Positions 18,657-36,176 of a stretch of 64,000 nt of DNA are shown one piece after another. The stretch comes from an uncultured Actinomycetota bacterium (GTDB lineage Bacteria > Actinomycetota > Actinomycetes > DATJPE01). The position numbers were made by a program, and so were the translations under genes. The DNA is taken from positions 268,780 through 332,779 of the forward strand of contig CAWKPB010000007.1 in assembly GCA_963851405.1 (NCBI GenBank). The letters are read 5' to 3'. Position 1 is the first letter of the stretch, and each line of letters begins with the position of its first letter. The notes beneath the pieces were generated by a model. It searched no databases. It had not been told where the DNA came from and saw nothing but the letters and a program-made list of their open reading frames with translations.

Positions 18657-19262
18657 TCAGTCCTCGCCGTCGTGGCTCTCCAGGACCGGCTTGCCGTTTG
18701 AGCATCGGATCTTGACCTCGGTCTCCTGGTCACCAGAGCGGAACGTGATCTCCAACTCCTTCGGTCCACGGTCGTGCACCTCCACCCGCCAGCCATCGTT
18801 GGGCGCTGCAGACTTCAACGTGATGGCCGACCCGGCGCACGACGCTGCGACGGTGCCGCCCGCCACCGCGAAGGTCGCGCTCGCGGATGGCTGAGGCTGG
18901 GTCGTCTTTGAGGGCTTCGGCTTCGGGGTCGGGGACGGTTTGGGCGTGGGCTTCGTCGACGGCTTGGTCGCTGGCTGGTTGTTGTTACCAGTGGGCTTCT
19001 GGGTGGCGGCAGGCTTGGAGGTCGCCGAAGGCGACTTCTTCGCTCCTTTGGGCTTGTCCACCTTGGCTGGCTGGGGAGTCGGAGCGGGCGACGCAGTGGC
19101 GACCGCAGAAGAGACGGCCGCGGCGGAGAGGATCTTCGCTTGGGTTCCGCCGACTTCGACAGCCACGATCTGGACCGCGAGAAATGCGGTCGTGCTCAGA
19201 ATCGCGGTCAGGGCCACCCACACCGCCACGAGTCCAAGGGGAGCCAAACGCATGCCTCCCAC
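18657..19262 (-). CDS. membrane-anchored protein with Pro/Thr/Lys-rich linker and small 2-Cys C-terminal domain (hypothetical)
   Basis: N-terminal TM helix LAPLGLVAVWVALTAIL, then low-complexity PKPSPTPKPKPSKT, then a roughly 75-aa beta-like C-terminal region. Confidence 0.5.
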   Translation of the reverse strand: MGGMRLAPLGLVAVWVALTAILSTTAFLAVQIVAVEVGGTQAKILSAAAVSSAVATASPAPTPQPAKVDKPKGAKKSPSATSKPAATQKPTGNNNQPATKPSTKPTPKPSPTPKPKPSKTTQPQPSASATFAVAGGTVAASCAGSAITLKSAAPNDGWRVEVHDRGPKELEITFRSGDQETEVKIRCSNGKPVLESHDGED

Positions 19263-19375: not shown

Positions 19376-20059
19376 GTGCCTTCCATTCTCCTCGTCGAGG
19401 ACGACCCCTCCATCCGTACCTCGTTGGTACGAGCGCTCGGCGAGCGTGGCCACACCGTCGTCAGTGCTCCGACCGCCATGGCGGGGTTGCATGCCGCGGT
19501 CGAAGAGCGCCCTGACGTCGTGCTGCTCGACCTAGGGCTTCCGGACCTCGATGGTGGGACGCTGCTGCAGATGCTTCGGGCTGTGAGCCAGGTGCCGGTC
19601 GTGGTGATTACCGCCCGCGACGACGAGGCTGAGATCGTCCGGCTCCTCGACCAAGGTGCTGATGACTACGTGGTCAAGCCGTTCAGAGCCGATCAGCTGG
19701 ACGCGCGAATCCGGGCCGTTCTTCGCAGGGCCTCGGCCACGGAGCCGATGAAGCCTCTTGAAGTCGGTGGCCTCGTGATCGATGTGAGGACTCGTGTCGT
19801 GACCCTGGACGGGGCCGAGTTGGCGTTGAGCCGCAAGGAGTTTGACCTGCTGGCCTACCTGGCCGCCCGACCCGGCGAAGTCGTGTCCAAGCGCGAACTG
19901 CTCGCTGAGGTCTGGCAGCAGCCCTTCGGCGGCGGGGATCGAACCGTGGACGTGCACGTGTCGTGGCTGCGCCGCAAGCTTGGCGAGCGAGCGGATGCTC
20001 CTCGCTACATCATCAGCGTTCGGGGTGTAGGGCTCCGGTTGGTCGACCCGGACGCATGA
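19376..20059 (+). CDS. OmpR-family response regulator
   Basis: Receiver domain ILLVEDDPSIRTSL with phospho-acceptor LLDLGLPDLDG and winged-helix C-terminus ...YIISVRGVGLRL. Confidence 0.9.
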   Translation: MPSILLVEDDPSIRTSLVRALGERGHTVVSAPTAMAGLHAAVEERPDVVLLDLGLPDLDGGTLLQMLRAVSQVPVVVITARDDEAEIVRLLDQGADDYVVKPFRADQLDARIRAVLRRASATEPMKPLEVGGLVIDVRTRVVTLDGAELALSRKEFDLLAYLAARPGEVVSKRELLAEVWQQPFGGGDRTVDVHVSWLRRKLGERADAPRYIISVRGVGLRLVDPDA

Positions 20060-21324
20060 GGCGCCGAATCGTCTTGTACGGAACGGCCACCACGCTGGCC
20101 GTGGTCATCGCCTTCCTCCTTCCGCTTGCTGTCTTGGTTCAGTCCCTCGTCGCGGACCGCGCTCTGGACGCCGCCACACAGGAGGCGCAGGGCATTGCCG
20201 TGATCGCTGCCGCATCGGACCAAGGCATGGACGAGGTCGTAGCGAACGTCAATGCTCAGGGAGTGCGAGAGACCACGGTCTTCTTGCCTGATGGGTCCAT
20301 CGTGGGGATCCCGGCGGAGGTCTCTGCCTCGGTGGAACTCGCTCGTTCTGGGCAGGCATTCACGGCCGATACGGCTGGGGGGAAAGAGGTGCTGGTGCCC
20401 GTCGAAGGCCCGGCGGGGTTGTCCGTGATCCGTGTGTTCGTGCCCAGCGAGGCACTGACCGAAGGCGTACGGCCAGCCGTGGTGAGCCTGATCGGAGTCG
20501 GCCTGATCCTCGTTCTCACGGCGATCGTCGTCGCCCGCGTCGTCGCCAGGCAGATGAGCCAGCCGATCGTGGAAGCTGCTGCCGTGGCCGAGCGTCTGGC
20601 CGACGGCGAGTTGGACGCGCGCGTCGTACCGGCCGGGCCGCCCGAGGTCGAGGAACTTGGACGCGGCCTGAATCGCCTGGGCGACCGTATTGAACATCTG
20701 CTCGCCTCGGAGCGAGAGTTGATCGCCGACCTGTCGCACCGGTTGCGGACGCCGATCACCGCGCTGCGGCTCGAGGTGGACGCGTTGTCAGACCGGGCTC
20801 TCGCCGCCCACCTCGACGAACGCGTCGACACCCTCGCTGACTCGGTGGATTCGGTGATCCGGGCCGCACGCCGGCCGGTGCGTTCCGCGGTGCCCTTCTG
20901 CGATGCGGTGGAGGTTGTGGGAGGTCGAGCCGGCTTCTGGGCCGTCTTGGCGGAGGATCAGGGGAGAACTCTCGATGCCGTGCTTGTTCCAGGCCCCAAG
21001 CTCGTCCCCGTTGATGCGGATGAGTTGGGGGCTGCCGTGGACGCCCTGATCGAGAACGTCTTCGCCCATACCGACGAGGGAGTGGGTCTGGTCGTGACTG
21101 TCTCTGAGTACGAGGGCGGGACCAGGGTGGTCGTCAGCGACGCCGGTCCAGGAATCTCGGGTACCGGCCTGGACCGGCGCGGCCGAAGTGAGTCTGGTTC
21201 GACCGGCCTTGGGCTGGATATCGCGCGAAGGTGTGTGGAGACCGTTGGCGGCGCCTTCGCGTTGAGGACCTCGGCCCTGGGCGGGGCCGAAGTCCGGCTC
21301 GACTTCCCCGTCCCAGCACGCTGA
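20056..21324 (+). CDS. sensor histidine kinase (partner of the upstream response regulator)
   Basis: ATG at 20056 overlaps the regulator stop; two TM segments around a periplasmic loop; HAMP; H-box LIADLSHRLRTPITAL; G-boxes near the C-terminus. Confidence 0.85.
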   Translation: MRRRIVLYGTATTLAVVIAFLLPLAVLVQSLVADRALDAATQEAQGIAVIAAASDQGMDEVVANVNAQGVRETTVFLPDGSIVGIPAEVSASVELARSGQAFTADTAGGKEVLVPVEGPAGLSVIRVFVPSEALTEGVRPAVVSLIGVGLILVLTAIVVARVVARQMSQPIVEAAAVAERLADGELDARVVPAGPPEVEELGRGLNRLGDRIEHLLASERELIADLSHRLRTPITALRLEVDALSDRALAAHLDERVDTLADSVDSVIRAARRPVRSAVPFCDAVEVVGGRAGFWAVLAEDQGRTLDAVLVPGPKLVPVDADELGAAVDALIENVFAHTDEGVGLVVTVSEYEGGTRVVVSDAGPGISGTGLDRRGRSESGSTGLGLDIARRCVETVGGAFALRTSALGGAEVRLDFPVPAR

Positions 21325-21352: not shown

Positions 21353-21832
21353 TCAGTCGTCGTCAGGCTCGTCGTGCTCGCCGCCTCCGTCGTCCCCGTG
21401 ATCATCTTCGTGGTCGTCAGCATGGTCGTCACCGTGGTCGTCGCCGTGGTCTTCGGCCTCGTCGTCGCGGTAGTCGGCCTCATCGTCCCTGCTGTCGCCG
21501 TCGGCCTTACTGTCGTCGTTGCCGCCTTGACGAGACTGCGAGCTCTGGCTTGACCCGCTGGTCGAACCGGTGGATGCGGTGCCTTGGTCGCTCGCCGTGG
21601 CGACCGCCGCGGGGGCAGCAGCCTTGGCCCTGACCTTGACCTTCTTCTTCGCGTGGACCACGACGGGATGGTCCTCGGGGTACATGCCGGCGCTGGTTCG
21701 CACCGCTGTCTCCGATGATGGCTGTGCCGCGCTGGTTTCGGCTGAGCCACTCTGGGCTTGCGCCAACGCTGATCCGGCGAGCACGGTCCCGAGGGCCAGG
21801 GCCGCACCGACGGAGAGGGCTCGAGTGAGCAT
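21353..21832 (-). CDS. secreted acidic protein with C-terminal Asp/His (DH) repeat tail (hypothetical, possibly metal-binding)
   Basis: Internal ATG at residue 56 of ORF 21353..21997 gives a signal peptide MLTRALSVGAALALGTVLAGSALAQAQS. The C-terminus reads DHGDDHGDDHADDHEDDHGDD, encoded by degenerate gtggtcgtc-type 9-nt repeats. Confidence 0.55.
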   Translation of the reverse strand: MLTRALSVGAALALGTVLAGSALAQAQSGSAETSAAQPSSETAVRTSAGMYPEDHPVVVHAKKKVKVRAKAAAPAAVATASDQGTASTGSTSGSSQSSQSRQGGNDDSKADGDSRDDEADYRDDEAEDHGDDHGDDHADDHEDDHGDDGGGEHDEPDDD

Positions 21833-22135
21833 GTGATCCTCCAGGTCGTGTGTCTTCGTGTGGGATGACCATGCAGGGCGGGAGATCAGGGGCGCCCCAG
21901 GGCAGGGATAAGACCACCCCCTGCTTCCACGGCTGACGGGCCGGGCATCGGTGGGAATCTTGGGCCCGTCTTGACCTGGGGATGGGGTGCGATTCACGCG
22001 TGCTGGGCGACTCTCTTTTCACCGGGGCGAACCGCGCCTCGAGAATGGAGGCTCCCAGTGTCTGCCCGACCAGCGCCAGATGGTGCCGAACCCACCTTGC
22101 GTGCTACGAGCCGGGCCGTACGTCGTCGCGATCGG

Positions 22136-22558
22136 ATGAACCGTGCCATCGACGCCACCGGAAGCCTCGCGGTCGTTGGCGCGCTGATGGCCACCGGCGT
22201 CGTCGCCGGGGCCTTCCAGTCATCGGCTCAGGCATCGGCCGCGGAAAAGGCGGCAAGCGATGGCGCGGCGGCTCAGGTCCAGGATCGAGTCAAGGCGAGC
22301 AAACACAAGCCCGTGCCACGTCCGACGCACACCATCTACAAGATCGTGCGCGTCACCCAGTCGCCAGCCCCGGTGAGCCAAGCGCAAGCCGGGTCTCCGC
22401 AATACACCGGTGGTCAGTCCTCCTCCGGGAGCTCGGGCTCTGGGTCAGCCCAGCCGGCCTACAAGCCCACCAAGGCGGCTAAGCCTGCGCAGCCCAAGCC
22501 AGCGCAGCCCAAGCCAGCCCCGAAACCCAAGCCGTCGGCAACATCGTCCGGGTCATGA
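22136..22558 (+). CDS. secreted/membrane-anchored protein with Lys/Pro-rich AQPKP repeat tail (hypothetical)
   Basis: Internal ATG of ORF 21971..22558; signal/anchor LAVVGALMATGVVAGAF; C-terminal KPAQPKPAQPKPAPKPKP; stop overlaps the apbE start (ATGA). Confidence 0.5.
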   Translation: MNRAIDATGSLAVVGALMATGVVAGAFQSSAQASAAEKAASDGAAAQVQDRVKASKHKPVPRPTHTIYKIVRVTQSPAPVSQAQAGSPQYTGGQSSSGSSGSGSAQPAYKPTKAAKPAQPKPAQPKPAPKPKPSATSSGS

Positions 22559-23526
22559 CCGCGGTTCGTTCGGGGTCGGACGTCGAACCCGAGTTGCCGG
22601 CCTTCGATCTCAAGACGTGGGGCATTCAGGTGCGGGTCGTGGTCACTGATCCGGACGTTTTGGCGGCCGTGGCGGTCACCACCCGGGACTGGCTGGATCG
22701 AGTCGATCGTGCGTGCAGCCGTTTCAGGGACGACTCCGACCTGGTGCATGTCAACCACGCTGGGGGCCGCGCGGTTCAAGTCAACCCCGTGCTCCGTCGC
22801 GCGCTCGGCGCTGCCATGGAGGCAGCTCGCGTGACGGGTGGCCTGGTCACCCCGACCGTGGGTCAGGCCCTGTGCGAGGCAGGCTATGACCGAACGTTCG
22901 CCCTGGTGGGGCCAGCGGGGCCGACCGATATCCCTCGCCCGATGACGCAGCCGCGTCCTGCGCCGCAGTGGCAGGCCATCGAGATCGACGAGGGCGCCGG
23001 TACGGTCCGGATCCCGCGGGGGTACCAGCTCGACCTCGGCGCCACGACCAAGGCGTGGGCCGCGGATCAACTGGCCGAGCGCCTGGCCAGTGACCTTGGC
23101 TGCGGGATTCTGGTCGATCTCGGCGGCGACGTCGTGGCCGCAGGTGAGGCGCCCGAAGGAGGGTGGCTCGTCCAGGTTACCGACGGCCCTCGTGCGTCCG
23201 CGAACGGACCCATGATGGCGTTGTGGGACGGTGCACTGGCGACCTCGAGCACGGTCATCCGGCGCTGGGTTGCCGATGGCGCCGCTCGCCACCACATCAT
23301 CGACCCGAGCACCGGGCTCCCGGCTGACGATCTGTGGCGCACCGTCACGGTCCATGCGGCGCACTGCTTCGACGCCAACGCGGTGAGCACGGCTGCAGTC
23401 ATCCTCGGTGACAGGGCTCTGCCCTGGCTCAGCGAGGTCGAGCTGCCGGCTCGCCTCGTGCGGCGTGACGGCCTGGTGATGGCCGTGAACGGGTGGTCAG
23501 AGGACGAATGGGAGGCCGTCGGATGA
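22555..23526 (+). CDS. apbE: FAD:protein FMN transferase (ApbE family flavin transferase)
   Basis: 323 aa; conserved YQLDLGATTKAWAADQ and HHIIDPSTGLPAD blocks typical of ApbE/Ftp. Confidence 0.85.
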   Translation: MTAVRSGSDVEPELPAFDLKTWGIQVRVVVTDPDVLAAVAVTTRDWLDRVDRACSRFRDDSDLVHVNHAGGRAVQVNPVLRRALGAAMEAARVTGGLVTPTVGQALCEAGYDRTFALVGPAGPTDIPRPMTQPRPAPQWQAIEIDEGAGTVRIPRGYQLDLGATTKAWAADQLAERLASDLGCGILVDLGGDVVAAGEAPEGGWLVQVTDGPRASANGPMMALWDGALATSSTVIRRWVADGAARHHIIDPSTGLPADDLWRTVTVHAAHCFDANAVSTAAVILGDRALPWLSEVELPARLVRRDGLVMAVNGWSEDEWEAVG

Positions 23527-24101
23527 CCTGGGATGTCTCGATGCTCTGGTACATCGGCCGCGGGTCCGGGCTGGTGGCTGAGGTTCTCCTCACGGTCGTC
23601 CTGGTGCTGGGCACGGTGTCGGCTGTCCCTGGCGGCCGGCGATCGATCCGTCGCAGGGTGGTCGATCAGGGTCTGCATCGCCAGCTGACGCTCGCAGCGG
23701 TGGTCATCTTGATGGTGCACATCACCAGCCTGGTGCTGGATCAGTACGTCGATCTCGACCTGGTGGACGTCTTGATCCCGTTCGGCTCGTCCTACCGCAC
23801 GGTCTGGCTGGGTTTGGGCACGCTGGCCGTGGATCTCACGGTGGTGATCGTCGTGACCTCGCTGCTGCGGCACCGGATGACCCCCCGGGCGTGGAGGGCC
23901 GTCCATTTCACGGCGTACGGCGCATGGGCGTTAGCAGTCGCCCACGGGCTGCTGAGCGGGACCGACGCCACTGAGGCGGCGGTCATTTGGCTGACAGCCG
24001 CGTGCGTGGCGGCGGTGGCGATGGCGGTCACCTACCGGCTTGAGGTGGCCCGCGCCAGCCAGTCCACACGCGTGGGAGAGCGGCTTGGGGCATCGTCGTG
24101 A
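23523..24101 (+). CDS. ferric-reductase-like transmembrane haem-b protein (MsrQ/FRD-type)
   Basis: ATG at 23523 overlaps the apbE stop; about 5 TM helices; two His pairs spaced about 13-14 residues apart (HRQL...MVH and HFTAYGAWALAVAH), the bis-haem ligation pattern of the ferric-reductase domain. Confidence 0.65.
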   Translation: MTWDVSMLWYIGRGSGLVAEVLLTVVLVLGTVSAVPGGRRSIRRRVVDQGLHRQLTLAAVVILMVHITSLVLDQYVDLDLVDVLIPFGSSYRTVWLGLGTLAVDLTVVIVVTSLLRHRMTPRAWRAVHFTAYGAWALAVAHGLLSGTDATEAAVIWLTAACVAAVAMAVTYRLEVARASQSTRVGERLGASS

Positions 24102-25305
24102 ACCGACTCCGGTATCCCGTGGTCTCCGCCGTGCCGGGCGGCATCCTCGATGTCTCCGCAGACAGGAACACCGATTTCCGCTGCCCGGCCTCGACTTGGA
24201 GGTTCTCGTGGCCCTGGCCGAGTCGGCCGAACTGCGCGGTCGTGGCGGCGCTGGCTTCCCGGCGGCTCGCAAGATTCGTGCAGTTGCGGCACGCCGCCGC
24301 CGCCCCGTCGTAGTCGTCAACGCCTCCGAGGGAGAACCGGCCAGCGGAAAGGACGCAGCGCTGCTCCGCCTCGCACCGCACGTGGTGCTGGACGGGGCGG
24401 AGCTCTTGGCTCAGGCACTGGCGACCCGCGATGTACGGGTCTGGGCGCCGGGTCACGACCCGGCGGCGGCAGCGGTGCTCGCAGCGGCAGTCAACGCGCG
24501 CGCTGGTGGACGCCGGAGTGTGCAAACCCGAGTTGTTCTCGCCCCCGATCGGTTTGTCGCCGGTGAGTCGACCGCGGCAGCACGTGGTTTGTCGGGTCAG
24601 ACGGCCATCCCGCGTGCGGACGGCCGCCGGACCTCCGACACCGGCGTCAACGGCAGACCGACCCTGTTGCTCAACGTCGAGACGGTCTCCCAGCTGGCCC
24701 GCCTGGCACGAGGGCAATCAGCGACCCGCCTGGTCACGGTGCTCGGAGCCGTCCGTTCCCCAGGCGTCATCGAGATCGAGGACGGCACCGCCATGCCCCA
24801 GGTGCTGGCCGCCGTTGGGGGCACCACGCAGCCGGTACGGGCGTTCGTCCTTGGTGGCTACCACGGCATCTGGGCGCCGGCCGATGCGGCGAGCCAGCAG
24901 ATCCTGGGGTCGGCCGGCTCCCTCGTCCCTGATTGCTCCATCATCGTCGCCCTTCCCGACGACGCGTGCCTGCTTGCCGAGCTCGATGGGGTCGGTCGAT
25001 TCCTGGCCGCGGAGTCGGCGCGCCAATGTGGACCGTGTGCCTTCGGCCTGCCCCAGTTGGCGGCGTCCGTGCGGTCGGTACGCCGCGGCGCCGTGAGTGC
25101 CCAGTCGGTCAGCGAGCAAGGTGAGGTCTTGATAGGCCGAGGAGCGTGCTCCCACCCGGATGGGTCCGTCCGCTTCCTGTCCAGTGGGCTTCAGGTGTTG
25201 GCGGAGGAGGTGGCCGCACATCGCGCGGGCGACGGCGACTGTGGTCGACCGCTGCGGCGCGTCTTGCCCTTGCCGGACCCGGCGCTTATCAGGTGCTCAG
25301 CATGA
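24040..25305 (+). CDS. NuoF-like NADH-binding FMN/Fe-S flavoprotein (Complex I 51 kDa-subunit family); start uncertain
   Basis: SAELRGRGGAGFPAARK (NADH/FMN site), VVVVNASEGEPASGKD, C-terminal Cys cluster ...CGPCAFG. The annotated ATG would overlap the upstream gene by 62 nt. Confidence 0.75.
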   Translation: MRWPAPASPHAWESGLGHRREPTPVSRGLRRAGRHPRCLRRQEHRFPLPGLDLEVLVALAESAELRGRGGAGFPAARKIRAVAARRRRPVVVVNASEGEPASGKDAALLRLAPHVVLDGAELLAQALATRDVRVWAPGHDPAAAAVLAAAVNARAGGRRSVQTRVVLAPDRFVAGESTAAARGLSGQTAIPRADGRRTSDTGVNGRPTLLLNVETVSQLARLARGQSATRLVTVLGAVRSPGVIEIEDGTAMPQVLAAVGGTTQPVRAFVLGGYHGIWAPADAASQQILGSAGSLVPDCSIIVALPDDACLLAELDGVGRFLAAESARQCGPCAFGLPQLAASVRSVRRGAVSAQSVSEQGEVLIGRGACSHPDGSVRFLSSGLQVLAEEVAAHRAGDGDCGRPLRRVLPLPDPALIRCSA

Positions 25306-25544
25306 GCAGCCCATCCCGCAGTGCGACTAGTCGCACGCTCGAGGTGGATTGGGCGCGCTGTCGAGGACATGGCCACTGCGCCCACTTGCTTCCGGAACTA
25401 GTGCGTCTGGACGGCTGGGGCTACCCCATCGTCGCGGACGCAGAGGGCGGGTCCGCCGTACCGCATTCCTTGGACGCGGTCGCGGAGCGGGCTGTTTCCT
25501 GGTGTCCGAATCTCGCCCTGCGACTGAGGGAGCCTCGCCCCTGA
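25302..25544 (+). CDS. small ferredoxin (single cluster, CxxHxxC...CP type)
   Basis: ATG at 25302 overlaps the NuoF-like stop; CRGHGHC ... WCP motif as in 3Fe-4S/4Fe-4S actinobacterial ferredoxins; 80 aa. Confidence 0.7.
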   Translation: MSSPSRSATSRTLEVDWARCRGHGHCAHLLPELVRLDGWGYPIVADAEGGSAVPHSLDAVAERAVSWCPNLALRLREPRP

Positions 25545-25556
25545 GCGCCGCCAGCC

Positions 25557-26219
25557 GTGTGGGTGGCGACGGATAGGGTCGCGTGCGTGGCGACGGTGGA
25601 CAGGGCGGGTGGCTTGTTTCTCGCCCTCGAGGGCGGGGAAGGCACCGGCAAGTCGACTCAGATTCGGCTGCTGGCCCGACGTCTGGAGCGCCTGGGGCGT
25701 GGCGTCATCACCACCCGCGAACCCGGCGGTACCGCGGCGGGGGTAGCGATCAGAGCCATCGTCCTGGACCCTGCCACCGGTCATTTGGCCCCACGTTCTG
25801 AGGCGCTGCTGTACGCCGCCGATCGCGCCCACCACGTATCCACGATCATCCGTCCAGCTCTTCAACGCGGCGACATCGTGATCACCGACCGGTACATCGA
25901 CTCCTCGCTGGCCTACCAAGGTGCCGGGCGCACGCTTGAGCTTGAGGAGATCGAGTACCTCTCGCGTTGGGCGACCGAAGGACTAGTGCCCGACCTCACC
26001 GTGGTTCTCGACCTGGATCCGGAGATCGGGCTGAGCCGGGCTGGCCACCCGGACCGGCTGGAGGCCGAGCCGATGGACTTTCACCGCCGGGTGCGTCAGG
26101 CCTTTGTCGACCGGGCCGCCCTGGACCCCTCCCGGTACGCCGTCGTCGATGCGGACGGTGCCGTCAACGCCGTCGCCGAGGAGATCGCTGCAGCTGTTGA
26201 GGGTTTGATCTCGGCATGA
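25557..26219 (+). CDS. tmk: thymidylate kinase
   Basis: P-loop LEGGEGTGKSTQ, DRYIDSSLAYQGAGR; 220 aa. Confidence 0.9.
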   Translation: MWVATDRVACVATVDRAGGLFLALEGGEGTGKSTQIRLLARRLERLGRGVITTREPGGTAAGVAIRAIVLDPATGHLAPRSEALLYAADRAHHVSTIIRPALQRGDIVITDRYIDSSLAYQGAGRTLELEEIEYLSRWATEGLVPDLTVVLDLDPEIGLSRAGHPDRLEAEPMDFHRRVRQAFVDRAALDPSRYAVVDADGAVNAVAEEIAAAVEGLISA

Positions 26220-27394
26220 CCGTCTGGGATCACCTGGTCGGACAGGGCAGGGCCGTCAGCCAGTTCACGCAGGCCGTTTCCGACGCAGCGTTGGTACTGC
26301 GCGGCGAGCCTGGTCCGGCGATGACCCACGCATGGCTCGTGACCGGACCCCCAGGATCCGGGCGTTCCAATGCGGCGCTGGCGTTCGCGGCCGCTCTCCA
26401 GTGCGAGCGCGGAGGGTGCGGCGTCTGTCACGCCTGCGAGACGGCTCTCGCGGGCAGCCACTCAGATGTGTCGGTCTACCGCCCGCAGGGTGCCCAGATC
26501 TACCTCATCGACAACATGAGAGACATGGTGCTCGAGGCGGCTCGCCTCCCGTCCGAAGGGCGATGGCGCGTCCTGATCTTGGAGGAGGCCGATCGATTCG
26601 GCGTCACGGGCTCGGACTTCAAGAGTGCCGGGGCCCTACTCAAGGCGATGGAGGAGCCGACTCCTCGTACCGTCTGGCTGTTGTCGGCTCCCACCGTGGC
26701 CGACACCCCATCCACCATCAGGTCTCGGTGCCGCCACGTGGGACTGGTTGCTCCGAGCGCCTCGGCGGTCGCCGGCTTGTTGGTCAGGGACGATGGCGTC
26801 GATCCGGCGATGGCAGCCTTTGCGGCCGCCGCGAGCCAGGGGCACATCGGTCGAGCCCGAGGGTTGGCGCTCGAGGAGGACGCCCGGGTACGCCGCGCTG
26901 AGGTGCTGGCGCTGCCGACGCACACGGCGACCGTGGGTGGTTGTCTCACGGCAGCCGCCAATCTGGTCGACGCCGCGAAGGAGGAGGCCGAGGAGCGCAA
27001 CGGGCTTCGGGAAGCCGCAGAGACCGAGGCGCTCTACCAAGCCCTTGGCGTCGTACCCGGCGGACGGCGTCCCACGGGGACGGCCGGGGCGTTGAAGGAC
27101 CTCGAGGAAGCGCAGAAACGGCGGCGTACTCGATCGCTGCGCGATTCCCTCGACCGAGCGTTCCTCGACCTGGTCGCGTTCTACCGAGATGTGTTGGTCG
27201 TCCAGTCCGACGCCGGGGTCCCGCTCGTCAACGTTGATCGCCGTCGTGACGTCGACGCAGTGGCAGCCGCCAGTTCCCCCGAGACGACGGTGCGACGGAT
27301 CGATGCGGTCATGGCTGCGCGGCTGGCCGTGGAGCAGAACGTCGCGCCGTTGCTCGCTGTGGAGGCCATGACCCTCGCCTTACGGGCCGCATGA
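26216..27394 (+). CDS. holB: DNA polymerase III subunit delta-prime
   Basis: AAA+ P-loop GPPGSGRSNAALAFAAAL, Zn module CERGGCGVCHAC, box VLILEEADRF; overlaps the tmk stop. Confidence 0.9.
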   Translation: MTVWDHLVGQGRAVSQFTQAVSDAALVLRGEPGPAMTHAWLVTGPPGSGRSNAALAFAAALQCERGGCGVCHACETALAGSHSDVSVYRPQGAQIYLIDNMRDMVLEAARLPSEGRWRVLILEEADRFGVTGSDFKSAGALLKAMEEPTPRTVWLLSAPTVADTPSTIRSRCRHVGLVAPSASAVAGLLVRDDGVDPAMAAFAAAASQGHIGRARGLALEEDARVRRAEVLALPTHTATVGGCLTAAANLVDAAKEEAEERNGLREAAETEALYQALGVVPGGRRPTGTAGALKDLEEAQKRRRTRSLRDSLDRAFLDLVAFYRDVLVVQSDAGVPLVNVDRRRDVDAVAAASSPETTVRRIDAVMAARLAVEQNVAPLLAVEAMTLALRAA

Positions 27395-29043: not shown

Positions 29044-29667
29044 TCAGGAGAGTTCGGCAGCACCGAAGGACACTCGGAATCGTTGGCACCAGATGCTGAC
29101 GCTGGTCAGCTCTTCGAGGTCGACGGAGTTGGGTAGGGCGTAGTTCTGATTGCCCTGATTGCCCTTCAGCGCCCCTAGGTCGACATAGGCCCCGTCATCG
29201 AAGACGAACCACCCGTCCCTCCCCTCGATCACTGGAGCATCGGTGATCCAGACTCGAAGGTCGGGGCCATTTGATGTGTCCAAGCCTTCGATGCGAAGCA
29301 CCCTCGAGCCGTCCTCGAGTTCGAGAACCCGAACCTGCCCGGTGGTGCCGTGCTCGTGGCTGATGAAAGCGCCACTCGCCAACTCGACGGGGCCAACCGA
29401 TGACGGTACGGGCTCCGCGGATGGCTCCGGACTATTGGAGCCATTGGGGGAAGGTGACGTGCTCTCCGTTGACGTCGGCGCGGTCGCCGCGGGGACCGCT
29501 GTGGGGAGAGCCTCATCCACCACCTCGTTGGTGAACAACGTCCAGGGCTCGAACAGGTACAGCGCAACGGCAAACATGGCCGCGAAGACCAGGCCCACGG
29601 GGACGAGGACCGCCGGGCGCGCCCAGGCGCGGCGTCGATTCCCCTGTGGTGCTTGGTCGCTCGTCAT
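29044..29667 (-). CDS. DM13-domain protein with N-terminal membrane anchor
   Basis: Internal ATG at residue 33 of ORF 29044..29763; TM helix AVLVPVGLVFAAMFAVALYLF; Ser/Pro-rich linker; C-terminal GQVRVLELEDGSRVLRIEGLDTSNGPDLRVWI, resembling the DM13 fold. Confidence 0.6.
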   Translation of the reverse strand: MTSDQAPQGNRRRAWARPAVLVPVGLVFAAMFAVALYLFEPWTLFTNEVVDEALPTAVPAATAPTSTESTSPSPNGSNSPEPSAEPVPSSVGPVELASGAFISHEHGTTGQVRVLELEDGSRVLRIEGLDTSNGPDLRVWITDAPVIEGRDGWFVFDDGAYVDLGALKGNQGNQNYALPNSVDLEELTSVSIWCQRFRVSFGAAELS

Positions 29668-29784
29668 GACTCCCCTAGGGATCGACCGATCGGTTGCGAT
29701 CAGGCTAAGGGGAGCGGTTGCTGGTGCGGATCGCCGTGAGCGTGGTCGGGTATCGTTCGTCACCGCTCGGTAACCTCGGGCGAC

Positions 29785-34849: not shown

Positions 34850-36176
34850 CGTCCGGCCGGTCGCCCTGCCCTGCTGCTGCCCTGTTTGCTAGCGGCGTGC
34901 ACCACCACCGGATCGACGCCGACCCAACCCGGCGCGGAGGACGCAGCCGCAACGGCGGGAGTGCCCGGGCCGGGGGTCACGGCCGACACGATCACGGTGG
35001 GGTGCTCGTCCTCGCTGGCGCCAACACCGCCGGCTCTGGCGGTTTCGTCGTGTCGCCCCAGGGCGACACGCAAGCAGCAGGCGCAGGTGGTGATCGACAC
35101 ATCAACGATCAGGGGCGGCATCGCCGGCCGACAAGTCAAGCCTGTCTGCGGGAGTTTGACTCCTCGACCTCGTCGCCCACGACAGAGACCGCCGTCTGCA
35201 CGTCGTTTACCCAGGACGACGAGGTGTTCGCGGTGATCGCTGCTCGGCCAGCGCACCAACGCGGCGCGCTCCTGCTACCAGAAGGCCGAGACTACGTTCC
35301 TCGACGTCTCGCAAGCCGCTCAGCCGTCCTCGATCTACACGGAATCTCGCGCCGTACTACTGGACGCCGAACTCGGTGCCCTCGACTCGCGACGAAGAGC
35401 TGATCACGGACCTAGGCGCGAGTGACGGCTTCTGCCGGGGCGCCAAGGTCGGCGTCCTCGTCGAGAAGGATCCGAGCTTCGAGGGCGTCTACGACGAAGT
35501 TGTGACCCCGGCACTGCAGCAGCTCGGGGCCACGGCAGTCCCGCGGACGATCGACCAGAGCACCTCGGAGAACGCGATTCGCCACGGCGGGCGTCCGCGG
35601 CCTCGTCCTTCCAGAAGGCGCGGGGTCGACCATGTGCTGTTCCTCGGGCGACCGGACAACGTGGGGCTACTTCACGACCTTCACCGACTCAGCAGAACTA
35701 CTACCCGACGCTCGATCCGGCGCTTCGAGACACCCAAGTTCATGGCGCAGAACCCGTCCGTGTATCCGGCGAAGTCGCTGTCTGGCGCTCAGGGAATCGG
35801 ATTCTTGCCCGACGTCGATGAGGTCCCCGACTACGCCTTCCCTGCCCCCGGTGCGGAGACCACCTGCATCAACATCTTGGGAGATGCTGGCATCACCTTC
35901 GAGGGTCGAGCCGAGGCGAAGACCGCGCTGCGATTCTGTGACGGCCTGATGTTCCTAAAAACCGTGGGAGACCAGATTGGGCCCGATGGGGTGATGAACG
36001 CAGCGAACATGGCCGCGGTCGCGGCTGGCCTCGGGTCTACGTGGCAGGCGGCCACCACCCTGGGGACGTCGTTTGGGACCGAGGGTGCCACGACGTACGC
36101 GCCTGGAGCCGGGTACCGGACTCTCGTCTACGACGGAGTGTTTGCCTACGACGGCGACACCAAGAACTTCAGCTGA
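34850..36176 (+). pseudogene. disrupted Liv-type periplasmic substrate-binding lipoprotein (at least four frameshifts)
   Basis: Lipoprotein signal LLLPCLLAACTTTGS and GVTADTITVG in one frame; VLVLAGANTAGSGG and TQDDEVFAVIAA in a second; GIAGRQVKP in the first again. The 3-prime 800 nt (ORF 35376..36176) is a single frame resembling the SBP C-terminal lobe. Confidence 0.55.

Follow-up and report, generated by a model that had tools for sequence, protein, structure and literature searches.

ApbE-dependent flavinylation is the main known way in which bacteria place a flavin cofactor outside the cytoplasm, and the ApbE substrates accepted so far are folded domains that cradle the flavin. A gene cluster of an uncultured Actinomycetota bacterium raises the question of which protein an ApbE homologue would modify when no such domain is encoded beside it. 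The window analysed here is a stretch of 64,000 nucleotides from contig CAWKPB010000007.1 (GenBank assembly GCA_963851405.1), and reading of its sequence places five coupled genes on the + strand at 22058-25544. In order, these encode a small membrane protein (g1), a homologue of ApbE, the flavin adenine dinucleotide (FAD):protein flavin mononucleotide (FMN) transferase, a cytochrome with a ferric reductase-like domain (FRD), a NuoF-like protein and a 3-Cys ferredoxin. The module is very probably an MsrQ-like/NuoF-type electron conduit, which is a known, already catalogued kind of system and not a new one. What is probably new is the g1 family, which has no Pfam or NCBIfam model and whose sequences make it a specific candidate for the missing flavin carrier. 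The probability that g1 is flavinylated by the adjacent ApbE is put at roughly 55%, because of its C-terminal motif, its co-occurrence with ApbE, the lack of such a motif in the other cluster proteins, and precedents among known systems.

The g1 gene (22058-22558) codes for a small bitopic protein of 166 amino acids, and the GC content at its third codon positions is 0.77 in frame. The original prediction began this gene at the Met codon at 22136. The start has been moved to a GTG at 22058 because a 166-residue gene is called in an independent contig carrying an identical ApbE, and because the RRRDR juxtamembrane motif of g1 homologues is located upstream of that Met. The protein comprises an Arg-rich N-terminus, one membrane helix (LAVVGALMATGVVAGAF, 22166-22216), a disordered tail rich in Ser, Pro, Lys and Ala, and the terminal sequence SATSSGS-COOH. 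An AlphaFold2 (AF2) model contains a single N-terminal helix and no other structure (predicted TM-score 0.16). Hydropathy and flanking charge predict a cytoplasmic N-terminus and a tail on the outside, and the N-terminal side of the helix has the more positive net charge in 40 of 47 family members. Throughout the family the N-terminus is Arg-rich, often with the pattern [RE][DE]x[AG][LVI]RR, the helix is weakly hydrophobic, and the tail has 46-180 residues rich in Ser, Thr, Pro, Ala and Gly. Export by the Tat pathway was considered, since twin Arg residues occur in 35 of the 47 members, but the preceding residue is hydrophobic and there is no F-L-K context, and no Tat signal is claimed.

No Pfam or NCBIfam model matches the window g1, and ten diverse members of the family gave no significant Pfam match. 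Searches with Pfam and NCBIfam models found none of the FMN_bind, NqrB/RnfD, DUF2271, DUF3570, Flavodoxin_4 or FMN_red domains in g1, and the AF2 model lacks a folded domain. The homologue in Frankia is annotated as a hypothetical protein. A profile built from the g1 alignment retrieved only four proteins from 1.84 billion representatives, all of them close relatives. The low complexity of the family defeats sequence profiles, and its members were therefore collected by gene position, which gave a set of 50. A second g1-like class (L030:6842-7282, L090:1521-1910 and L097:83-610) lies beside the same ApbE and cytochrome genes and ends in CHSTP(T/S)HPC-COOH, a tail that may bind metal or haem.

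The case for g1 as an ApbE substrate begins at its C-terminus. A C-terminal [ST]-x-[GA]-[ST] motif is present in 46 of the 50 members, in the strict form [ST]-G-[GA]-[ST] in 32 and in the relaxed form [ST]-[GSANH]-[GA]-[ST] in 14 more, and in 39 of these 46 its last residue is also the last of the protein. Control open reading frames (ORFs) from the same loci carry the strict motif at a frequency of 0.5-0.9% and the relaxed motif at 1.4-2.3%. The tail consensus is P-[VS]-A-[VTS]-S-G-G-S-COOH, and the canonical flavinylation motif D-x-x-S-G-A-S is matched exactly by some members, such as those of Streptomyces (DSTSGAS-COOH) and locus L119 (DASSGAS-COOH). The last four codons of the window gene (TCG TCC GGG TCA, 22544-22555) encode S-S-G-S, a flavinylation-like motif.

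Other bearers of the motif were sought and rejected. The sequence [ST]G[AG][ST] is absent from the FRD cytochrome, the NuoF-like protein and the ferredoxin in all 21 loci checked, and the sole other match in these loci is an isolated TGAS in the ApbE of L019; none of these four proteins was therefore retained as the acceptor. The only D-x-x-[ST]-G-A-[ST] match in the window lies in an ORF at 35632-35949, which is out of frame inside a longer ORF. The original prediction had stated that the window holds no FMN-binding domain with a flavinylation motif and had left the flavinylated acceptor unidentified. The window indeed holds no FMN_bind-type domain, whereas a flavinylation-like C-terminus is present in g1. 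The protein that had been described simply as secreted and Lys/Pro-rich is thus the best candidate for the acceptor, by its motif and its co-occurrence with ApbE.

This co-occurrence was observed in a synteny scan of one genome per species (GTDB), in which an alignment of the NuoF-like protein served as query and 31 loci with an orthologous NuoF-like gene were found. The cytochrome gene lies immediately upstream of the NuoF-like gene in 29 of the 31 loci. ApbE is also present in 20 of them, where the genes run ApbE-cytochrome-NuoF-ferredoxin or in a permuted order. These 20 loci include Gaiellaceae, Solirubrobacterales, Acidimicrobiaceae, Nanopelagicales, Nocardioides, Kibdelosporangium, Amycolatopsis and Symbioplanes as well as Chloroflexia and Dormibacterota. 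The five-gene set is found in the complete genomes of Streptomyces europaeiscabiei, Frankia casuarinae CcI3 and Pseudonocardia endophytica, each time in an unrelated neighbourhood, and the module order is also found in metagenome loci. The recurrence of the gene set in unrelated neighbourhoods indicates that the module is self-contained. With the gene order present in 20 of the 31 GTDB loci and in three cultured actinomycetes, the orthologues are clustered and not scattered, and the refuting outcome named in the original prediction did not occur.

Every ApbE-bearing locus has a small g1-type ORF just upstream of ApbE or the cytochrome gene. Permuted orders include cytochrome-NuoF-ferredoxin-g1-ApbE, g1 directly before the cytochrome gene with ApbE last, and a divergent g1 (examples are L015:11415-12700, L020:4998-5306, L113:3039-3347 and L100:2582-2920), and g1 is present in every permutation. 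Conversely, nine or ten clusters of FRD and NuoF-ferredoxin genes without ApbE, for example in Streptomyces sp. NBS 14/10, Herbidospora and Streptosporangium, are themselves devoid of a g1-like ORF. Only L020 departs from this pattern, with a g1 gene after the ferredoxin gene and no ApbE in the locus. A second, reduced set in the Gaiellaceae locus L005 (17209-19006) consists of a minus-strand ApbE gene divergent from g1 (ending in ...VAQSGGS) and the cytochrome gene, with thioredoxin-like genes alongside and with neither NuoF nor ferredoxin. Since only these three genes make up the second set, the ApbE/g1/cytochrome trio is considered to be the conserved core. A fusion of g1 and ApbE by frameshifting was rejected, as no slippery site is present and g1 and ApbE are encoded separately in every locus, in several of them at non-adjacent positions. 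The 430-residue ApbE P0265 has its extension at the C-terminus and not at the N-terminus.

The assignments of the other four genes made in the original prediction are upheld by Pfam and NCBIfam models, PDB homologues, invariant His residues, and an AF2 model with fold matches. The ApbE homologue (22555-23526, 323 residues) matches PF02424 with an E-value of 5e-45 and 154.4 bits against a cut-off of 25.6. Its PDB homologues are TM1553, Treponema pallidum Ftp and ApbE (E-values 1e-20 to 1e-8), and the alignments with TM1553 and Ftp span the whole protein. The score against the E. coli-type equivalog NF007774 is 46 bits, below the cut-off of 498. The same-strand genes are coupled as had been described, and the junctions were confirmed directly in the sequence. 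ATGA overlaps join g1 to ApbE (22555-22558), ApbE to the cytochrome gene (23523-23526) and the NuoF-like gene to the ferredoxin gene (25302-25305), and a GTGA overlap joins the cytochrome gene to the NuoF-like gene (24098-24101). By operational definition, MsrQ-like systems have a PF01794 gene in a cluster with apbE or an FMN-binding gene, and here the ApbE and FRD genes overlap by 4 nt.

The cytochrome (23523-24101, 192 residues) is an FRD (MsrQ-like) di-haem transmembrane cytochrome b. Its Ferric_reduct (PF01794) score of 26.7 bits is just under the gathering score of 28, and the identical protein P0124 has a precomputed PF01794 match. NCBIfam has no model for the cytochrome or for the ferredoxin. 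Residues H52, H66, H128 and H141 are invariant in 73 sequences, and their spacing (H-x13-H and H-x12-H) is the FRD signature. The AF2 model (mean predicted local distance difference test score 84) has five long helices with the His pairs on the helices at 42-72 and 121-145, that is, on helices 2 and 4 of five, compared with pairs on helices 3 and 5 of six in canonical FRD proteins. A Foldseek search of the PDB returned STEAP4, STEAP2, SpNOX, STEAP1, cytochrome b561 and the transmembrane domain of NOX5 as top matches, with probabilities of 0.99-1.0 and query TM-scores of 0.47-0.59 but weak E-values (0.01-0.25). Positive charges in the loops at 34-41 and 115-120 place the N-terminus of the cytochrome outside and its C-terminus inside.

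The number of helices differs with the presence of ApbE. In cytochromes from ApbE clusters a single helix precedes the first one with a His pair (five in total), whereas those from clusters without ApbE have two there (the canonical six), and the extra N-terminal helix of the latter is preceded by an Arg-rich N-terminus, as in g1. Because the predicted orientation of g1 is N-in with the tail out, the N-terminus of the five-helix cytochrome is outside, and an extra helix occurs in the cytochromes of clusters without ApbE, g1 and the five-helix cytochrome possibly represent a split six-helix FRD protein in which the g1 helix is the "missing" first helix. An outer loop of the FRD protein would in this way have been turned into the long g1 tail, and the acceptor serine would lie on the side of the outer haem. 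The six-helix cytochromes of clusters without ApbE (L011:5104-6819, L024:8202-9866 and L003:8940-9899) have a long cytoplasmic C-terminal tail with short Pro/Arg-rich repeats; in L011 the sequence TGPMPRA is repeated many times.

The NuoF-like protein (24098-25305, about 402 residues with the frame restored) carries the Complex1_51K (PF01512), SLBB (PF10531) and NADH_4Fe-4S (PF10589) domains. It scores 108.6 bits against the NuoF equivalog TIGR01959, far below the cut-off of 558.65. The family keeps the GRGGAGFP loop, NxxEGEP, GE(E/S)xA and five invariant Cys residues, and NxSEGEP and GES are conserved. The Cys pattern is Q-C-G-P-C-x-F-G, in which the third Cys of C-x2-C-x2-C is missing. The gene is frameshifted in the present assembly, which the original prediction had missed. 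Homologues begin with M..R(Y/F)PVV, which is matched only in the frame of the GTG at 24098 (MNRLRYPVVSAVPGGILD; MNRLRYPVV...), and from LDLEVLVALAE onward the homology continues in the other frame (24040). GC contents at the three codon positions are 0.67/0.44/0.78 in the 24098 frame, which is of coding type, and 0.74/0.70/0.57 in the 24040 frame, which is not. Alignment with homologues and codon-position GC place a 1-nt deletion at about 24150-24185, with the break itself near 24176-24180. On the simplest reading a C is missing after 24179, and restoring it gives D-F-P-L-P-G-L-D. The frame break is treated as an assembly error and not as decay, because a Logan contig with an identical ApbE has an intact 402-residue gene and frame breaks abound in L001 and L002, which are sister long-read assemblies.

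The ferredoxin (25302-25544, 80 residues) matches Fer4_15 (PF13459) with an E-value of 5.6e-12 and 46.6 bits (cut-off 22.4). Its ligand pattern is C-x2-H-x2-C...C-P, which reads CRGHGHC...CP, and its cluster is presumably [3Fe-4S], as is usual for the Fer4_15 family. In many relatives the ferredoxin is fused to the NuoF-like protein.

Together, these proteins suggest a path for electrons across the membrane. What the sequences show directly is the gene set with its conservation, the motifs of the cofactor ligands, the g1 family with its motif, and the joint occurrence of g1 and ApbE. The electron path is inferred from the cofactor motifs, and the direction of flow, the flavinylation of g1 and its packing against the cytochrome are proposals. 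NAD(P)H would reduce the FMN of the NuoF-like protein, and electrons would pass from FMN to the Fe-S cluster of the same protein and then to the 3-Cys ferredoxin. The ferredoxin would donate to the inner haem b (His52/His128) of the cytochrome, and the inner haem to the outer haem b (His66/His141). From there, electrons would reach an FMN linked by a phosphoester bond to the C-terminal serine of g1. This flavin would be installed by the ApbE homologue at the terminal [ST]-G-[GA]-S sequence. The g1 helix would probably pack against the cytochrome as its missing sixth helix, and the disordered tail of 50-180 residues would keep the flavin tethered at the outer face, where it would serve as a carrier. 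Candidates for the final acceptor are Fe(III)/Cu(II), O2 or a partner reductase, and metal reduction or superoxide formation are reasonable guesses at the function and nothing firmer. These guesses are based on the fold matches to STEAP and NOX proteins and on the two-component system, the anchored Pro-rich protein and the secreted Asp/His-rich protein found in one sub-clade. The conduit proposed in the original prediction, fed by NAD(P)H and linked to flavinylation, fits the published MsrQ-like system with a NuoF-like protein (PMC8238504).

Several observations weigh against the flavinylation of g1. The motif of the window protein is S-S-G-S and not [ST]-G-A-[ST]. Ala occupies the canonical position in only 8 of the 46 motifs, and the Asp of the motif is mostly absent. 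Three members (L030, L090 and L097) end in CHSTPxHPC, and L023 fits neither pattern. The AF2 model offers no fold able to shield a flavin. The Gly-Gly codons of g1 are often purine-rich and lie 4-9 nt ahead of the overlapping start codon of the next gene, and they can double as a Shine-Dalgarno-like stretch; the motif is perhaps partly a footprint of translational coupling.

The enzyme itself also argues against this reading in two respects. The conserved residues of the ApbE catalytic centre are Ser241, His257 and Asp285 in Vibrio cholerae numbering (PMC12052999). In 41 cluster-type enzymes S231, H246, H247 and D250 are invariant, and the catalytic Ser (S231) and His (H247) are retained, which are two of the three catalytic-centre residues. 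The canonical catalytic, Mg-binding Asp is systematically replaced in this subfamily. Position 275 (window 23377-23379), equivalent to D285 of V. cholerae and D284 of T. pallidum, is Asn in 37 of the 41 enzymes and Glu in the other 4. Judged by their sequences, the cluster ApbEs are an unusual subfamily with Asn or Glu at the Asp position as its hallmark, and the Mg-dependent transfer of FMN from FAD to Ser/Thr by the window enzyme is putative. The four Glu275 enzymes also have Lys in place of Thr279, and the three of them with a known partner pair only with T-G-A-S tails; this suggests a link between enzyme and tail that is confounded by lineage.

The second respect is location. The original prediction assumed that ApbE acts on extracytoplasmic targets, but this ApbE is not predicted to be extracytoplasmic: the window ORF begins at its first possible start, 25 residues before the domain, and leaves no room for a signal peptide, and a credible hydrophobic segment at the N-terminus is likewise lacking in all of 40 orthologues. 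All cluster ApbEs thus lack a signal peptide while the g1 tail is predicted to be extracytoplasmic. Cytosolic ApbEs exist (PMC12052999). One speculative option is that the flavin is added to the extreme C-terminus of g1 before translocation, which would reconcile the two compartments and explain the position of the motif.

These points can be combined into an explanation in which g1 is a mere structural subunit, the split-off first helix of the cytochrome, and its terminal GGS merely results from translational coupling or has some other role. The Asn-variant cytoplasmic ApbE would then load the NuoF-like protein, as an FAD pyrophosphatase or flavin chaperone, or would flavinylate a target encoded elsewhere. 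The substituted active site and missing signal peptide of ApbE agree with this explanation, as do the extra helix that ApbE-less cytochromes carry in cis and the PDB homologue T. pallidum Ftp, which is an FAD pyrophosphatase. So do the purine-rich Gly codons (GGA GGA or GGG GGA) before the overlapping GTG or ATG in many loci, but coupling accounts poorly for how the motif is encoded. It is always in the same reading frame. The Ser at position -3 is encoded by both the TCN and AGC codon families, so that the flanking Ser/Thr is kept across codons at a non-synonymous distance, and all four Gly codons are seen at -2 and -1 in roughly background proportions. Of 43 motif-bearing genes, 13 have no 4-nt overlap, and the g1 genes of L020 and L100 retain the endings VVVSGGS and SAVTGGS although no coupled gene follows them. 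This variety of synonymous codons and the retention of the motif without an overlap or a coupled gene indicate that selection on the motif acts at the protein level. Canonical D-x-x-S-G-A-S versions occur, the clusters hold no other motif-bearing protein, and, apart from L020, g1 is missing exactly where ApbE is missing. A purely structural g1 is therefore regarded as unlikely, and flavinylation of g1 by the adjacent ApbE is preferred.

A less likely explanation, which we consider improbable, is that the module works as a bacterial NADPH oxidase or metal reductase in split form. It would then yield extracellular superoxide/H2O2, or Fe(II)/Cu(I) for uptake, instead of respiration-type electron export, and a flavin on the g1 tail, if present, would be only an adaptor between one- and two-electron steps. 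The nearest folds of the cytochrome are the STEAP metalloreductases and SpNOX/NOX5, and MsrQ-like clusters have been linked to iron assimilation through VIT1 (PMC8238504). An Asp/His-rich secreted protein is encoded next door both here and in L026, L028 and L029, and the hosts are mostly aerobic soil actinomycetes. Yet the cluster of the window has no iron transporter, siderophore gene or Fur-type regulator, and neighbouring genes differ completely between genomes. Finally, the module is very improbably a decaying pseudogene cluster in this organism: the 1-nt frame break has left a public call of the NuoF-like gene (P0004) truncated at the N-terminus to 365 residues, but the gene is intact in the independent assembly, both of its halves keep a coding-type codon-position GC, the frame breaks of L001 and L002 suggest indel errors, and the remaining genes of the module are all intact.

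The surroundings of the module are variable. The original prediction had remarked that the wedge position of the genes between a two-component system and tmk/holB does not belong to mycobacterial core synteny, and about 7 kb, comprising a two-component system and the module, do lie between topA and tmk-holB; elsewhere the contexts are unrelated, and no neighbour is constant across the Streptomyces, Frankia and Pseudonocardia loci. The two-component system (19376-21324, + strand) was identified by Pfam and NCBIfam and consists of an OmpR-type response regulator (19376-20059) and a HAMP histidine kinase (20056-21324). Strong orthologues precede the module in L001, L002, L008, L027 and L029, which include a Nocardioides metagenome-assembled genome, and the system is linked to the module in only one sub-clade. 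It was not assigned to MtrAB, as its highest score with NCBIfam models, 184.6, falls short of the cut-off of 300. In four of these five loci (L001, L002, L027 and L029) the two-component system is accompanied by a membrane-anchored Pro/Lys-rich protein (18657-19262 in the window, - strand).

Between the kinase gene and g1, a divergent gene (21353-21832, - strand) encodes a secreted protein with an Asp/His-rich tail (DDHGDDHGDDHADDHEDDHGDD...), recognised as an ORF with orthologues in L001 and L002. The tail is made up of DDHG/DDHE repeats (DDHGDDHGDDHADDHEDDHGDDGGGEHDEPDDD), and unrelated acidic-tailed ORFs are found just upstream of g1 in L026, L028 and L029. The Asp/His-rich protein is a candidate metal binder and a possible metal ligand for the module, and its link to the module is only suggestive. 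Downstream, tmk (25557-26219) and holB (26216-27394), both on the + strand and identified by Pfam, follow the ferredoxin gene after a gap of 12 nt and are joined to each other by an ATGA overlap (26216-26219). The gap contains no terminator-like site, and a scan for promoters and terminators gave nothing above chance. Because of this short gap without a terminator-like site, the redox module and the housekeeping genes tmk and holB are probably transcribed together. A DM13 ("electron transfer DM13") protein is encoded 3.5 kb downstream of the module (29044-29763, - strand) and in the same place in L001 and L002.

If g1 is flavinylated, the substrate rules of ApbE would widen, with Gly tolerated at the Ala position, Asp dispensable and a free C-terminus acceptable. 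"Orphan" apbE genes that Pfam-based surveys could not resolve would be explained, and the cytoplasmic enzyme and external tail would pose the question of where the modification takes place. The locus would also provide a minimal natural model of tethered-flavin electron transfer through the Gram-positive envelope. A further proposal, made tentatively and held to be somewhat unlikely, is that g1 founds a new class of ApbE substrates: a natural "flavin tag" that is bitopic and fold-less and bears FMN on the extreme C-terminal serine of a disordered tail. Were this so, the g1 membrane helix would complete a split FRD cytochrome, and the signal-less Asn-variant ApbE would attach the flavin in the cytoplasm before the tail is threaded out. 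This would be a new route to an external flavin in a monoderm cell that requires no FAD exporter, with a shuttle that is tethered and not diffusible. Streptomyces, which can be cultured and is genetically tractable, carries the operon. Without flavinylation of g1, the locus would simply add one more member to the catalogued class.

That class was described in a survey of flavinylation-associated gene clusters (Méheust et al., 2021, eLife; PMC8238504), in which 1797 "MsrQ-like" clusters, mostly from Actinobacteria, were defined by bioinformatics. In 31 of them a NuoF-like protein (PF10589) is included, and this was read as pointing to NAD(P)H as the electron donor on the cytosolic side (PMC8238504). 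No experimentally characterised member of the MsrQ-like/NuoF-type system was found in the literature searched. The window module shares with this subset an apbE gene next to genes for a PF01794 di-haem membrane protein and a NuoF-like protein, membership of a predominantly actinobacterial class, and a proposed flow from NAD(P)H to the extracytosolic side. Typical members differ in having a substrate with an FMN_bind domain, whereas only a domain-less tail protein is present here, and the survey was filtered for ApbE and FMN_bind proteins with signal peptides, which the window ApbE lacks. The five-helix cytochrome with a separate one-helix partner and the separate or fused 3-Cys ferredoxin also set the present clusters apart. 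Both large surveys found substrates through Pfam annotation, which is why the g1 family has been missed so far.

The individual components can be compared with better-known proteins. The cytochrome resembles MsrQ/YedZ, STEAP and NOX proteins (SpNOX and NOX5) in its two His pairs with x13/x12 spacing, its helical-bundle fold and its role in transmembrane electron transfer. It differs from the FRD superfamily in having five helices instead of six and no fused dehydrogenase domain, and its input would come through the NuoF-like protein and ferredoxin instead of an FNR-type domain or quinol. The NuoF-like protein shares the Complex1_51K, SLBB and NADH_4Fe-4S domains and the FMN loop with complex I NuoF and the RnfC N-module. 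In contrast to complex I NuoF, it has no NuoE or NuoG partners, and C-x2-C with three distant Cys residues replaces C-x2-C-x2-C...C. Flavin-based extracellular electron transfer in Listeria (Ndh2, EetA/B, PplA and FmnB) likewise takes place in a monoderm and uses an ApbE-type enzyme to flavinylate a membrane-tethered surface protein that relays electrons from NADH. The quinone pool, the FMN_bind lipoprotein PplA, the exported FmnB and the energy-coupling factor (ECF) transporter that supplies FAD are features of Listeria that are not present here.

Two precedents come closest to the proposed g1 carrier. FMN_red proteins with flavinylation motifs on an unstructured C-terminal extension are encoded near apbE (Huang et al., 2024; PMC11334425), and g1 shares with them both the disordered C-terminal extension and the nearby apbE. 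In these proteins the tail folds back onto a flavin-binding domain that they themselves contain; g1 lacks one, and its flavin would have to dock on another protein, for example the cytochrome. The second precedent is the engineered "Flavin-tag" (Tong et al., 2021, as reviewed in PMC12052999), for which, according to the review, a terminal motif of seven residues suffices for modification by ApbE. As described there, the tag reads D-x-x-[ST]-G-A-[ST], whereas most of the natural g1 tails read x-x-[VT]-S-G-G-S, in which the Asp is absent and Gly replaces Ala. The likeness lies in the use of a short terminal peptide without a folded flavin domain; the tag works best at a terminus and carries FMN on its last Ser/Thr, as the g1 tail is proposed to do.

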